A DNA stretch of 64,000 nucleotides from Gemmatimonadales bacterium. Its GTDB lineage: Bacteria; Gemmatimonadota; Gemmatimonadetes; Gemmatimonadales; GWC2-71-9. The stretch spans positions 18,531 to 82,530 of the forward strand of contig JBQTHV010000036.1 in the NCBI GenBank assembly GCA_052389555.1, read 5' to 3'. Below are positions 1 to 64,000 of the stretch, in pieces (the first letter of the stretch is position 1; every line of letters starts with the position of its first letter). Below the pieces are notes generated by a model, which worked only from the letters and a program-made list of their open reading frames with translations, did no database searches and was not told the origin of the DNA. The translations under genes were made by a program, and so were the position numbers.

Positions 1-2576
1 ACGACGCCAAGCCGGTCGGCGAACGCTCGAGTGCAGCGCCGCATCTCGTCGATCTGCGCCTCGGTCACGAGATACGGCGGCAGGACGCAGGCCGAGTCGC
101 CCGAATGAATCCCCGCGCCCTCGATGTGCTGCATCACGCCGCCGATCACGCATCGCCGGCCATCCGCAATCGCATCCACGTCCGCTTCGAAAGCCTCTTC
201 CAGGAATCGATCGATCAAGACGGGGTATCCAGGAGCCACCCGTTCGGCCTCGGCGAAGAAGGCGGTGAGCGAAGCCGCATCGTACCCGATCTGCATGGCC
301 CGGCCGCCTAACACGTACGATGGCCGAATGAGGACCGGGTACCCGATCCGTTCCGCCTCCCGCAGGGCTTCGGCGAGCGAGCGCGCCGTCCCATTGGCCG
401 GCTGGGCGATCCCCAGCTCTCGCGCGATCGCCTCGAACCGGCCCCGATCCTCCGCCGCATCGATCGCCTCGGACGGTGTCCCCAGGAGAGGAACCCCGGC
501 GGCCTCCAGTCCCTTGGCCAGGCGGAGCGGGGTCTGCCCGCCGAGCTGCACCACGACGCCAAGCGGGCGTTCGAGCTGCACGATCTCGAGCACGTCCTCG
601 AGGGTGAGCGGCTCGAAGTAGAGCGCGTCGCTCATGTCGAAGTCGGTCGAGACCGTTTCGGGGTTGGAGTTCACCATCACGGTGCGGTAGCCCATCTCGC
701 GGAAGGCCAACACAGCCCGCACGCAGCAGTAGTCGAACTCGATGCCCTGCCCGATTCGATTCGGGCCGCTCCCCAGGATGATCACGGTACGGTTGCCCTG
801 GGGGCCGATCTCGTTCTCCTCGTCGTACGACGAATAGAGGTACGGGGTCGCCGAGGGGAATTCGCCCGCGCAGGTATCCACCATCTTGTAGGCTGGCCGA
901 ATGCCCAGGGCGTGGCGCCGGTCACGGATTTCCGATTCGCTTACGCCGATGAGATCGGCGAGCTGCCGGTCGCTGAAGCCCAGCCGCTTCATTTTACGAA
1001 GGGCCGCTGCTTCGGCGGCAGGGCCGCCGGACGGCAGGACGGCAGGCGGACCCGACTCACCGGCCGTCTTGCCGTCTTGCCATCCCGCAACCGATCCTGC
1101 CGTCTTGCCGTCCTGCCGTCCTGCAACCTGTTCCGCCACCCACTCCCGTTCGGCTTCGACGAGCTCCCCCAGCTGCGCGATGAACCACGGATCGATATCG
1201 CTGGCTCCGGCGATCGCGTCGATTTCGATACCCGCGAGCAGTGCACGCTTGATCTGGAACAGCCGCTCCGGCGTCGGGACCGAGATGGCGGCCAGCAGCG
1301 CTTCGGGCGAGTCGTCGGTCAGCCGGTCGTCGACCAGCGTTTCGCCGATAGTCCAGCCCGGACGGCCGATCTCGAGCCCGCGAAAGCCTTTCTGGATCGC
1401 CTCCTTGAAGGTCCGGCCGATCGCCATGACTTCGCCGACCGATTTCATTTGGGTGGTGAGGACCGGATCGGCCGAGGGGAACTTCTCGAACGCGAAGCGG
1501 GGAATTTTGGCCACGACATAGTCCAGCACCGGCTCGAACGAGGCCGGGGTCGTGCGGGTTATGTCGTTCGGCAGCTCGTCCAGCCGGTATCCCACGGCGA
1601 GCTTGGCGCCGATGCGTGCGATCGGGAAGCCGGTAGCCTTGGAGGCCAGCGCCGATGAACGGGAGACCCGCGGGTTCATCTCGATGGTGAGCTGCTCGCC
1701 GGTGTCCGGATGCACCGCGAACTGCACGTTGCAGCCCCCCGCCTCCACCCCGACCTCCCGGATGATCCGGATCGCGGCGTCGCGCATGACCTGGTATTCC
1801 CGATCGGACAAGGTCATCGCCGGCGCGATGGTGATCGAGTCGCCGGTATGGACCCCCATCGGGTCGAGATTCTCGATCGAGCAGATGATCACCACGTTGT
1901 CGGCCCCGTCGCGCATGACCTCGAGCTCGAACTCCTTCCAGCCCAGGACGCTTCGCTCGACCAGTACCGATCCGACCGGGGAGAGCGCCAGCCCGTGCCG
2001 CAGCCGCTCCTCGAATTCCCGGGGATCGTGGGCCACCCCGCCGCCGGTCCCGCCCAGGGTGTACGAAGGACGCAGGATCGCCGGGAAACCAATCCGCTCC
2101 ACCCCGGCGAGCCCCTCCTCCAGGGTCGTCACCGTTTCGCCCTGAGGGATGGCCAGCCCGATCCGCCGCATGGCCTGGGCGAATTCCAGGCGGTCCTCCG
2201 CGATCCGGATGGCCCGCTCGTTGGCCCCGATGAGCTCGACCCGGTAGCGGGTTAGGATACCTGCCCGGGCCAGCGCCATCGCCACGTTCAGCGCGGTCTG
2301 CCCGCCCATCGTGGGAAGCAGCGCATCGGGCCGCTCCCGCGCGATGATCTTCTCGACCCACTCCGGCGTGATCGGCTCGATATAGGTCCGGTCCGCCATT
2401 TCCGGATCGGTCATGATGGTCGCGGGATTCGAATTCACCAGGATGACCCGGTAGCCCTCTTCCCGGAGCGCCCGGGCCGCCTGAGTGCCGGAATAGTCGA
2501 ATTCCGCCCCCTGGCCGATCACAATCGGCCCCGAGCCGATCAGCAGGATGGAGGAGAGATCAGTCCGCTTGGGCAT
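1..2576 (-). CDS. carB: carbamoyl-phosphate synthase large subunit (N-terminal ~858 aa; C-terminus lies beyond the window start)
   Basis: My translation of the minus strand from ATG 2576 reads [33 protein letters not shown]...[14 protein letters not shown]...[20 protein letters not shown]. The second half reads [22 protein letters not shown]...[13 protein letters not shown]. It is absent from the ORF track because it runs off the edge. Confidence 0.95.
1029..1124. repeat. inverted arrays of octamer GGCAGGAC / GTCCTGCC, in frame inside carB
   Basis: ggacggcaggacggcagg lies at 1029-1046. Its complement units ccgtcttgccgtcttgcc (1064-1081) and cctgccgtcttgccgtcctgccgtcctgc (1096-1124) follow. 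In carB this translates as [34 protein letters not shown]. Confidence 0.85.
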
Positions 2577-3507
2577 CCAGAAGGTCCCTGAGAGTCTGGT
2601 CCAGAGAAATCTGCGGGGTCCACCCCGTCGCGGCGCGGAGCTTGGTCGGGTCGCCCACCAGGTGCCGAATGTCGGAGCGACGGAGCAGCCGGGCATCCGG
2701 CTCGGCCGTCACGCTCCACCCGACCAGCTGCTGCATCCGCGCCAGCAGCTCACCGACGGCGTGTCCGGTACCCGACGCCACGTTGTACACTTCGCCCGGC
2801 GTCCCTTGGAGGACGAGCGCGACATACGCGGCGGCGACATCGCGCACGTCCAGGAAGTCGCGCACGACGTCGAGGTTGCCGGTCTTGACGACCGGGGCGC
2901 CCACCCGTTTGGCAACCGTAAGCCGGCCGGCCAGCGCGGGCGCCACGAAGCGAATGTCCTGCTTCGGACCGGTGTGCGGAAACGCTCGCGCGATGATGGC
3001 GCGCAACCCGGTCCGGCAGGCCACCTCGAGCACCGCGACCTCCGCACCGAGCTTGCTCGCCGCATAGGGAGAACAGGGCCTCGGCAGATCGGTTTCGTGC
3101 CGCGGCCGGCCCTCTCCCATCCCGTAGACCTCGCCGGTCGAGGCCAGCAGCAGCAGGGGATCGGCCCCGCCGGTCCGCCAGGTGCCGAGCACTTCCGCCA
3201 GCCTCGCAGTGCCGGCCGCGTTGATCTCCCACGCGAGACCGGGGTCATTTCGCGCTTCGCTCCCCGAAGCCATCGCCGCGAGATGAAAGACGGCGTCCCA
3301 ATGACCCTGCACCGCCGCGTCGACCGAAGGGCGAGATTGGAGTTCCATTTCCCGCCACTCGATCCGCTCACTCTCCGCCGGCGTGAGTACCGGAGAAGGT
3401 TTGCTCCCCGGACGGCAGGTCGCCACCACCGCGTGGCCATCTCTGAGGAGTCGGCGGGCGAGCCACCCCCCGACGAACCCGTCCCCCCCGGTGACCAGGA
3501 CCCTCAC
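2560..3507 (-). CDS. rmd: NAD-dependent epimerase/dehydratase, GDP-4-dehydro-6-deoxy-D-mannose reductase-like
   Basis: Rossmann N-terminus [16 protein letters not shown] and an extended-SDR YxxxK (PYAASK). It overlaps the gmd stop by 4 nt (same operon). Assignment as rmd rather than fcl rests on N-terminal similarity only. Confidence 0.7.
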
Positions 3508-63236: not shown

Positions 63237-64000
63237 TGGTGATCGCTCCGATTTCCGGGGGCGCGGTCCTGCCGCTGGTGCGGGAAGTGACCGGCAGTCC
63301 GGACCCGCTGGCGCTCTACGCGGCGCTGAGCGCGGGTGGCCAGCGGCCCGGCACCTTCCTGCTCGAGTCGGCGGAGACCGGGACCGGCTCCGGGGAGCGG
63401 AGCCTGATCGGCGCCGGCGTGGCGCTCAGACTCGCGTGTCAGGGTCGTCAGGTGGAGATCGAGGCGCGCTCTCCCAATGGCCGGGCGATGCTGCCCTGGC
63501 TGGAAACCCGGTTCGAGGATGCGGCCGGCGTCACGGTGGGCCGGGCCGAGCCTAACACGCTGCGGGTGGCCTATCCCGAGCCGCCGTCGGGCCCCCGGGA
63601 CGAGAGCAGCCGGGGCCGGCTCCCCTCGCCGCTCGATGCGCTGCGGGCCGTGGTGTTCGGCCCCGACCTGCTGGCCCACCCCACCGATGCCTGCCATCTC
63701 GCCGCCGGGGTGTTCTCCTACGATCTCATCGAGCTGTTCGAAGCGCTTCCCCCCGGCCGGCCCGAACCGGAACCGACCCCCCACTTCGAGTTCTTCGTGC
63801 CCGACCGGCTCATCGTGATCGACCACCTCCGCAACCGCACCTTGCTGGTCGCGACGGCCATCGGGGGTTCCGGCGATGCGGGGGAGGCGAACTATCACGA
63901 TGCGGTCACCGCCATCGGCGATCTCATGCAGATCCTGGAGGGAATCGGGAGTCGGGAATCGGGAGCCGGGAGTCGACTGGAAGCCCCCGATTCCCGACTC
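63236..64000 (+). CDS. trpE: anthranilate synthase component I (N-terminal part; continues beyond the window)
   Basis: My translation from ATG 63236 (TGATG overlap with the aroF stop) reads MVIAPISGGAVLPLVREVTGSPDPLALYAALSAGGQRPGTFLLESAETGTGSGERSLIG...GVFSYDLIELFE.... It is not in the ORF track because it runs off the edge. Confidence 0.85.
   Translation, partial: MVIAPISGGAVLPLVREVTGSPDPLALYAALSAGGQRPGTFLLESAETGTGSGERSLIGAGVALRLACQGRQVEIEARSPNGRAMLPWLETRFEDAAGVTVGRAEPNTLRVAYPEPPSGPRDESSRGRLPSPLDALRAVVFGPDLLAHPTDACHLAAGVFSYDLIELFEALPPGRPEPEPTPHFEFFVPDRLIVIDHLRNRTLLVATAIGGSGDAGEANYHDAVTAIGDLMQILEGIGSRESGAGSRLEAPDSRL
63941..64000. repeat. inverted heptamer arrays (GGGAATC/GGGAGTC)n in frame inside trpE (truncated by the window end)
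   Basis: ggaatcg ggagtcg ggaatcg ggagccg ggagtcg (63941-63975) is followed by the complement ccccgattcccgactc (63985-64000). It encodes GIGSRESGAGSRLEAPDSRL. Confidence 0.85.

Follow-up and report, generated by a model that had tools for sequence, protein, structure and literature searches.

What holds a single 9-bp word at more than fifty times its expected frequency in an otherwise ordinary stretch of bacterial chromosome? The question is raised by 64,000 nucleotides from the metagenome-assembled genome of an uncultured soil Gemmatimonadales bacterium (GenBank assembly GCA_052389555.1, contig JBQTHV010000036.1, positions 18,531 to 82,530; hereafter the window), through which the word CGGGTTAGG and its reverse complement CCTAACCCG are scattered. 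The word appears to belong with the hyper-abundant short genomic words typified by the DNA uptake sequence (DUS) of Neisseriaceae, the uptake signal sequence (USS) of Pasteurellaceae and the highly iterated palindrome 1 (HIP1) of cyanobacteria, and it is the likeness to DUS and USS that suggests a role in uptake. Tentatively, and by analogy, CGGGTTAGG may be regarded as a lineage-specific, DUS/USS-like self-recognition word of an uncultured Gemmatimonadales clade.

Abundance, form and placement of the word

An exact search of the window finds 27 copies of the word, 15 on the plus and 12 on the minus strand (Table 1). An earlier annotation of this DNA, made without database searches (the sequence-only reading), had counted the same number and split, and its coordinates stand for all copies but one, whose start moves from 21494 to 21495. 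At about one copy per 2.4 kb (the earlier estimate was about one per 2 kb), CGGGTTAGG is the top-ranked 9-mer of a window with 66.7% G+C, outranking all words made purely of G and C. By comparison, 100 dinucleotide shuffles yield a mean of 0.35 copies (standard deviation 0.61, maximum 3), while Markov models of orders 0, 1, 2 and 3 predict 0.81, 0.32, 0.27 and 0.51. Shuffling of synonymous codons, in which codons were permuted within each gene so that proteins and the codon usage of each gene stayed fixed and non-coding and stop-codon copies were left unchanged, predicts 4.0 and 2.65 copies (null maximum 7). The excess over chance is about 50- to 80-fold. Given the distance between 27 and every null expectation, the enrichment is real, and composition, protein sequence and codon usage do not explain it; the extreme enrichment claimed earlier thus holds, within the window, against all three kinds of null model.

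The word has sharp edges. The 25 bases on each side of the copies show no conservation, whereas a C precedes all 27 occurrences of GGGTTAGG in the window and a G precedes 27 of the 28 occurrences of GGTTAGG. Unrelated flanks and fixed edge bases together define a bare 9-mer rather than a repetitive extragenic palindromic (REP) element, a miniature inverted-repeat transposable element (MITE) or any other repeat. A REP- or MITE-type repeat was rejected on this ground and because 26 of the 27 copies overlap coding sequence. A structured RNA was rejected as well, as the only Rfam matches in the window are two tRNAs. Against the 27 perfect copies, all 27 possible single-mismatch variants together contribute 32 copies, where about 22 are expected under the codon-shuffle null, so that the excess is about 24 for perfect and about 10 for mismatched copies (a small sample). 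Only two of the variants are enriched over the codon-aware null, the others remaining at background: CGTGTTAGG, with G to T at position 3, is seen 9 times (1.2 expected, null maximum 3), and CGGGTTAGC, with G to C at position 9, is seen 4 times (0.46 expected, null maximum 3). The looser consensus is therefore CG[G/T]GTTAG[G/C]. Both sets had been noticed before: the four sites previously described as an 8-mer core are the four CGGGTTAGC sites, and the nine one-mismatch sites are the nine of CGTGTTAGG or, on the other strand, CCTAACACG.

Most copies (21 of 27) lie inside genes, a gene set backed by Pfam and NCBIfam matches and by third-position GC content. They occupy all four stop-free frames, encoding Gly-Leu-Gly (eight copies) or Arg-Val-Arg (four) in the sense direction and Leu-Thr-Arg (five) or Pro-Asn-Pro (four) where the gene runs antisense to the word. 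Both frames that contain a stop codon are used as stops, six of which are supplied by the five words at 14433, 16227 (two stops), 38381, 38546 and 53294. At 16227-16235 the TAG of a cupin gene and the TAA of a metallo-beta-lactamase gene overlap by 4 nt; the junction differs in relatives, being 12 nt longer. The words account for a large share of the rare codons of the window, holding 8 of 26 TTA (31%), 5 of 27 CTA (19%) and 6 of 24 TAG and TAA stops (25%). The use of every frame, the six stops and the forcing of rare codons had all been read from the sequence beforehand and are borne out. The conserved and highly expressed block of ribosomal-protein genes and rpoA contains no word, as expected if codon cost limits accumulation (PMC2817400).

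Orientation and spacing were considered in relation to replication. GC skew is negative in most parts of the window, its cumulative curve drops almost steadily along the 64 kb, and the majority of genes lie on the minus strand; the monotonic curve and the one-sided gene bias place the window in a single replichore. The 15:12 split is compatible with no skew (P = 0.70) and is unlikely under a Chi-like skew of 75% (P = 0.02) or 80% (P = 0.003), and still more so at 90% (P = 4e-6); a KOPS-like skew is excluded. A polar oligomer of the kind represented by Chi or the FtsK-orienting polar sequences (KOPS) was accordingly rejected, which strengthens the earlier claim of a balanced orientation unlike that of Chi or KOPS. 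Gaps between copies are roughly Poisson-distributed (coefficient of variation 1.08) around a spacing of ~2.3 kb. Two long word-free gaps, the ribosomal-protein/rpoA block and 21504-31186 (9.7 kb, the largest), are only marginally unusual.

Relatives and the origin of the copies

The lineage appears to have been sampled only once, since the FumC-like protein of the window (identical to MGQ0702123.1) has no other cluster above 85% identity among 5.8 billion. The word recurs in an apparent sister lineage, known from independent assemblies of one species here called L211 (ENA ERZ27251177, contig k141_932703) and L212 (JGI 3300019458, Ga0187892_10002611). Each of these carries 4 words in 21 kb, where 0.17 would be expected (P = 3e-5). 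Three of the four L211 words are orthologous to words of the window (those at 10826 and 17322 and the stop-codon copy at 14433), in DNA that is ~77% identical around the shared sites; chance retention of at least three of four has P = 0.003. The region common to both holds 7 words in the window and 4 in L211. By mean amino-acid identity the L211 lineage is the closest to the window, and a quartet analysis points to it as the sister (31 informative sites for this grouping, 19 and 15 for the other two).

Beyond this pair the word disappears. Six other related lineages with syntenic loci (L081-L087; L088; L209/L210; L213/L214; L215; L216) contain no word in ~142 kb of non-redundant sequence at 66-70% G+C; GCA_035286985.1 and GCA_036004545.1 are examples of word-free relatives. 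Conservation in related genomes, which the sequence-only reading had named as a check, is thus found at three of the four L211 sites and in none of these six lineages. Similarly, no word occurs in the 1.5 Mb of 80 loci around H+-pyrophosphatase homologues (among the matches listed, at most 79% identical) from Gemmatimonadota, Acidobacteriota, Rokubacteria and others. When the symporter and NamZ were used to look for homologues, no protein on the 122-kb L211 contig came up, but the word-free L215 and L216 did. A metagenome scan with a double-word pattern gave no further word-rich genome among the matches listed, and its GC-rich bacterial matches contain just the two copies of the pattern in 6-13 kb. 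Its matches (L089-L208) are mostly short GC-rich marine contigs that carry TTAGGG-type telomere repeats with C-containing variant units and are eukaryotic. Three scans of viral contigs found no phage with dispersed words, only local repeats. One such contig (L237, IMGVR_UViG_3300011115_000892) has CGGGTTAGG at 3451-4907 within a longer unit of ~25 nt, tttgCGGGTTAGGaatatcaggaa, present in 4-5 copies in 1.5 kb, which looks like a set of iterons or operators and has nothing to do with the word scattered through the window; another (L253) has a 13-nt tandem repeat. Judged from these sequences, the simplest history would be that the word arose once, in an ancestor shared by the two word-bearing lineages, and that copies went on accumulating afterwards.

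How single copies arose can be read from the word-free relatives, which at orthologous sites lie one to three substitutions from the word and often encode the identical peptide with common codons. Leucine codons differ either as CTC or CTG to CTA (CGGGTGAGG or CGGGTCAGG in relatives against ...TTAGG in the window) or, by two changes, as CTC or CTG to TTA (CGGGCTCGG or CGGGCTGGG), an arginine codon as CGG to AGG (CGGGTTCGG) and a proline codon as CCC to CCT (CGGGTTGGG). About 6 of the 11 comparable coding copies differ from at least one relative by synonymous changes only; the rest are found at variable residues, one of them at a 3-nt length difference. Among the four comparable CGTGTTAGG sites two are derived (the change named being CTG/CTC to TTA) and two ancestral. 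These synonymous substitutions to rare codons indicate that words were made by point mutation against codon preference, and such an origin is direct evidence of drive or selection on the DNA sequence. The earlier proposal that selection acts on the DNA word and not on the protein is strengthened, because relatives encode the same peptides with common codons.

A proposed uptake-type word and its rivals

An uptake-type word spread by biased uptake and recombination is ranked as the best explanation, at a confidence that falls short of even. In such a process a sequence-specific receptor on the transformation machinery would prefer double-stranded fragments bearing the word in either orientation, and these fragments would be imported and recombined more often than others. 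Alleles in which a point mutation had made a word would then be over-transmitted, a molecular drive that selection for recombination among conspecifics may reinforce. Copies would pile up wherever the protein tolerates them, that is, at rare synonymous codons, residues of low conservation, stop codons and spacers. The ranking follows from the length, density and sharp specificity of the word, its independence of orientation and frame, its permissive placement, the conservation of sites, the restriction to a clade and, tentatively in so small a sample, the ratio of perfect to mismatched copies. DNA-uptake-enhancing sequences (DUES) measure 9-10 nt and occur in hundreds to thousands of copies (10.1101/2025.10.24.684340), a range that includes a 9-bp word found once per 2.4 kb.

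The resemblance to USS is extensive. In its Hin-type (AAGTGCGGT) and Apl-type (ACAAGCGGT) forms, USS likewise has a non-palindromic 9-bp core, occurs in both orientations at about one copy per 1-2.5 kb, uses all open frames and is mostly intragenic (65% in H. influenzae, PMC2817400, against 78-96% here). Redfield and colleagues described perfect USS copies that match or exceed all single-mismatch copies (PMC1626085), and the 27 perfect copies of the window, a small sample, may come near to such a ratio. Both kinds of word sit at synonymous or poorly conserved positions, and both are clade-specific with a lower density in some lineages (H. ducreyi for USS, L211 here). However, the two sequences are unrelated; the window word has neither AT-rich flanks nor terminator pairs, its host belongs to another phylum, Gemmatimonadota, and has 67% G+C, it opposes codon bias whereas USS follows it, and close relatives of its lineage have no such word. 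The DUS dialects of Neisseriaceae (e.g. AT-GCCGTCTGAA), which are recognised by the minor pilin ComP, are also short asymmetric words, present once per kb to few kb independently of orientation, with lineage-specific dialects and accumulation in resident core genes. Yet only ~35% of DUS lie in open reading frames (ORFs), and terminators hold about half of them as inverted repeats (PMC2817400; 10.1101/2025.10.24.684340), while the window has a single fully intergenic copy among 27 and none in a terminator. The likeness to DUS and USS proposed by the sequence-only reading therefore gains from the synonymous origin of copies, the orthologous sites in L211, the absence elsewhere and perhaps the perfect-to-mismatch ratio, and loses by the lack of inverted terminator pairs.

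Several further points weigh against an uptake role. About half of all DUS and USS are found in terminators, often as inverted pairs (PMC2817400; 10.1101/2025.10.24.684340). In the window the closest inverted pair is 156 bp apart, and two scanned 20-kb stretches (10-50 kb of the window) contain no terminator-like hairpin over a word; a terminator component was rejected for these reasons. The low intergenic share counts in the same direction, as does the absence of USS-style AT-rich segments beside any of the 27 words. No competence or pilus gene (ComP/ComN-like pilin, ComEA, ComEC, DprA) is present within the 64 kb. In Neisseriaceae and Pasteurellaceae the trait is family-wide. Here L215, an equally close lineage (87% identical across 2,293 aligned residues), has neither the word nor a 'dialect' word in its place, and in L081-L088, the word-free relatives inspected for one, no alternative reaches a similar density. 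So far DUES are known from two proteobacterial families only (10.1101/2025.10.24.684340), which leaves a modest prior for a third, and all statistics are based on 85 kb, the 64-kb window plus 21 kb of sister contig. Confidence is held down because uptake bias, receptor and competence are all inferred, because terminator association is lacking and close relatives are word-free, and because of the small sequence base.

First among the rivals, and unlikely, is an intracellular recombination or repair signal, which would act after DNA entry or in the processing of double-strand breaks. It could take the form of an orientation-independent, Chi-like hotspot for a helicase-nuclease or of a HIP1-like recombination or restriction-escape word, kept by biased gene conversion or selection. 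The DNA-level origin of the copies suits any process of biased conversion, and the word is G-rich on one strand, as known Chi sites are. Chi and KOPS, or architecture-imparting sequences (AIMS), are also short G-rich words scattered through genes. They are co-oriented with replication, however, and known Chi sites are 5-8 nt long and only few-fold over-represented, whereas this word is enriched more than 50-fold without strand skew in one replichore. HIP1 (GCGATCGC) comes nearer, being 15- to 300-fold over-represented in all frames with sites conserved between species (PMC5861425). A reported increase in transformation efficiency through HIP1 depends on homology and methylation (10.1101/2024.09.10.611283), although its function is still debated (PMC5861425). 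But HIP1 is a palindrome, phylum-wide, ancient and tied to GATC/CGATCG methyltransferases, while CGGGTTAGG is 9 bp long, restricted to a narrow clade and asymmetric; as it differs from its reverse complement CCTAACCCG, a HIP1-type palindrome was rejected. Moreover, the 64 kb include no restriction-modification, bacteriophage exclusion (BREX), methyltransferase or recombination-nuclease (recBCD/addAB) gene, which tells against a recombination signal and against the defence tag discussed below.

An abundant, lineage-specific chromosome-organising protein, either nucleoid-associated or a loader of condensin or partition type, could instead bind the word, each copy being selected individually; this is improbable. 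The fairly even, Poisson-like spacing of ~2.3 kb would suit such a protein, as would the sharp 9-bp specificity with two tolerated variants, the independence of orientation and the retention of individual sites between lineages. The known sites of this kind (parS, matS, the SlmA- and Noc-binding sites SBS and NBS, and KOPS) occur in tens to hundreds of copies, against an extrapolated ~2,000 words here, and are palindromic, regional or skewed. Across thousands of loci, selection on each single site would need to be stronger than the codon cost, in a clade whose close relatives do without the word.

A tag for DNA modification or defence is very doubtful too. On this view the word would be what a BREX-, Type IIG- or Type III-like asymmetric methyltransferase, or some other self-tagging system, recognises, and its density would be selected because it helps to tell self from foreign DNA. 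An asymmetric, fully specified motif with a patchy, clade-specific distribution would be in keeping with defence systems, which are rapidly gained and lost. However, restriction-modification motifs are normally avoided or neutral rather than 50-fold enriched, and typical methyltransferase motifs are shorter than 9 fully specified bases. Three of the four L211 sites have counterparts in the window despite ~23% nucleotide divergence, which speaks for long persistence and not for rapid turnover. A link to orphan methyltransferases has been made for HIP1 (PMC4390886).

By-products of protein sequence, codon usage, mutational bias, a mobile element or faulty assembly are highly improbable and effectively excluded: Gly-Leu-Gly, Arg-Val-Arg and Leu-Thr-Arg are common in GC-rich proteomes and two of the nine CGTGTTAGG sites are ancestral in word-free relatives, but synonymous-codon shuffles reach just 2.7-4 copies against 27, the word is built from the rarest codons, unrelated flanks exclude a MITE or REP element, the ORFs of conserved genes stay intact, words recur in the independent contigs L211 (ENA) and L212 (JGI), and comparable GC-rich genomes have none in 1.5 Mb (among the matches listed).

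A broader proposal, itself rather doubtful, cuts across these alternatives. The word might be the DNA half of an undescribed self-marking system of Gemmatimonadota and not an uptake signal, that is, an intracellular, orientation-independent 9-bp tag. A lineage-specific reader protein would use it in recombination, repair, defence or chromosome organisation, and biased gene conversion would have spread it. The tag would have been gained by an ancestor common to two uncultured lineages, whose nearest relatives lack it. If so, the contrast in gene content between word-bearing and word-free sisters would expose a new protein family.

Gene context and meaning

The window carries ordinary chromosomal genes: carB, gmd, the rplQ-rpoA-rpsD-rpsK-rpsM block, pyrF, pyrD and smpB, together with genes for a fumarase/aspartase-family lyase, an H+-pyrophosphatase and TonB-ExbBD, a cluster for recycling of N-acetylmuramic acid (MurNAc), several two-component systems, a kynurenine-pathway cluster and two tRNAs. 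Words are densest in the peptidoglycan/MurNAc-recycling-type cluster at 30473-38388, which has 9 of the 27 and encodes a NamZ exo-muramidase, a GH3/NagZ-like glycosidase, a beta-lactamase-fold protein, a sodium:solute symporter and a BadF/BadG-type kinase. The kynurenine-type cluster at 52440-56643 comprises tryptophan 2,3-dioxygenase, kynureninase, a pyridoxal phosphate (PLP)-dependent enzyme of the PALP family and ornithine cyclodeaminase. At 47692-47952 an 86-aa ORF, probably a gene remnant, aligns with no more than positions 80-135 of the DUF3179 profile, which has 292 positions; despite a 27-bp tandem duplication (47758-47812), it has kept its word at 47711.

The largest word-free gap, 21504-31186, has a lower G+C content (0.64-0.67) and holds, at 23044-26696, a response regulator and a PAS histidine kinase of 965 aa, neither of which occupies this position in L088, L211 or L215; it may be a rearranged or acquired segment. 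Within it, between that histidine kinase and a 134-aa secreted-looking protein, ~0.8 kb (26700-27520) offer only short, low-quality ORFs and no Rfam match. Tandem arrays of G+C-rich octamers or nonamers, unrelated to CGGGTTAGG, sit partly in spacers and partly at gene ends: GACGGCCA at 56900-56953 (6.8 units), AGGACGGC at 33429-33498 (8.4 units), GGCAGGAC at 34370-34400 (3.9 units) and GGGCGGACA at 4485-4520 (4 units).

Table 1. Exact copies of CGGGTTAGG and sites of its two enriched variants in the window, with gene strand in brackets
Positions	Strand	Placement	Relatives and remarks
2248..2256	+	antisense in carB (-), CTA-ACC-CGn, Leu-Thr-Arg	
10826..10834	+	antisense in N-acetylmuramoyl-L-alanine amidase (-), Leu-Thr-Arg	word at orthologous position of L211; L088 has CGGGTCAGG (synonymous)
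12087..12095	-	sense in moeZ-like adenylyltransferase (-), Arg-Val-Arg	relatives CGGGTTCGG/CGA; AGG thus a derived rare synonymous codon
12664..12672	-	sense in moeZ-like gene, Gly-Leu-Gly	relatives CGGGCTCGG (Leu CTC to TTA, two synonymous changes)
14433..14441	-	TAA stop of CarboxypepD_reg-like gene (+)	word and stop role kept in L211 (11422)
16227..16235	+	TAG stop of cupin gene (+) and TAA stop of convergent metallo-beta-lactamase gene (-)	
17322..17330	+	antisense in thioredoxin-reductase-like gene (-), Leu-Thr-Arg	kept in L211 (8508); other relatives CGGGTGAGG/CGGGTCAGG, synonymous Leu codons
21495..21503	-	sense in H+-pyrophosphatase (-), Gly-Leu-Gly	no word here in L211 and L215
31187..31195	+	antisense in namZ (-), Pro-Asn-Pro	relatives CGGGTTGGG/CGGATTGGG, identical peptide, commoner codons
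32752..32760	-	antisense in GH3 glycosidase (+), Leu-Thr-Arg	other amino acids in relatives
33618..33626	-	antisense in beta-lactamase-like gene (+), Pro-Asn-Pro	
34188..34196	-	antisense in beta-lactamase-like gene (+), Pro-Asn-Pro	relatives 3 nt shorter here
34743..34751	+	sense in beta-lactamase-like gene (+), Arg-Val-Arg	gene stop 36 nt further on
36211..36219	+	sense in sodium:solute symporter (+), Gly-Leu-Gly	relatives CGGGCTGGG (Leu CTG to TTA)
37375..37383	+	sense in sodium:solute symporter (+), Gly-Leu-Gly	
38381..38389	+	TAG stop of BadF/BadG-type kinase gene (+)	
38546..38554	-	TAG stop of amino-acid permease gene (-)	inverted to 38381 copy, 156 bp apart, no hairpin
41318..41326	+	downstream of exbD	sole fully intergenic copy
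46155..46163	-	sense in PAS histidine kinase (-), Gly-Leu-Gly	
46950..46958	+	antisense in the PAS histidine kinase (-) that also holds the 46155 copy, Leu-Thr-Arg	
47711..47719	-	in DUF3179 gene fragment (-), Gly-Leu-Gly	
53294..53302	+	TAA stop of kynureninase (-)	
54115..54123	-	sense in kynureninase (-), Gly-Leu-Gly	
55046..55054	+	antisense in PLP-dependent (PALP) enzyme gene (-), Pro-Asn-Pro	
56170..56178	-	sense in ornithine cyclodeaminase gene (-), Arg-Val-Arg	
60762..60770	+	sense in hybrid histidine kinase (+), Arg-Val-Arg	
61268..61276	+	sense in hybrid histidine kinase (+), Gly-Leu-Gly	
307..315	-	variant CGTGTTAGG	
8586..8594	+	variant CGTGTTAGG in pyrF	also in L088 and L211, hence ancestral
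9320..9328	+	variant CGTGTTAGG in pyrD	also in L081/L084, hence ancestral
33115..33123	+	variant CGTGTTAGG in GH3	relatives GGTGCTCCG/CCTGGTCCG, hence derived
34085..34093	+	variant CGTGTTAGG in beta-lactamase-like gene	relatives CGTGCTGGG/CGTGCTCGG (Leu CTG/CTC to TTA), hence derived
45171..45179	-	variant CGTGTTAGG	
48944..48952	-	variant CGTGTTAGG	
54611..54619	+	variant CGTGTTAGG	
63551..63559	-	variant CGTGTTAGG	
12019..12027	+	variant CGGGTTAGC	
13888..13896	-	variant CGGGTTAGC	
19847..19855	-	variant CGGGTTAGC	
43566..43574	+	variant CGGGTTAGC	

In full-text literature searches the 9-mer appears in telomere, primer or unrelated contexts only, with no report of it as a bacterial word; the searches likewise brought up neither an uptake-like word outside Neisseriaceae and Pasteurellaceae nor any account of competence in Gemmatimonas. 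Only two proteobacterial families have documented self words that bias genetic exchange (10.1101/2025.10.24.684340), and whether such words arise by molecular drive or by selection for recombination between conspecifics is debated. The lineages compared here, one rich in words, a sister with fewer and cousins with none, form a natural comparative series. The copies, as synonymous substitutions against codon bias, are visibly young, which makes the rate of word gain measurable, and phylogenetic profiling of word-bearing against word-free genomes could reveal a cognate receptor or enzyme. On the practical side, the word can serve as a marker for binning and for spotting foreign DNA in word-bearing genomes. 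If the uptake reading is true, it suggests that natural transformation with recognition of self DNA occurs among Gemmatimonadota; should the word be no uptake signal, it is still a clean case of strong DNA-level selection or drive overriding codon preference.

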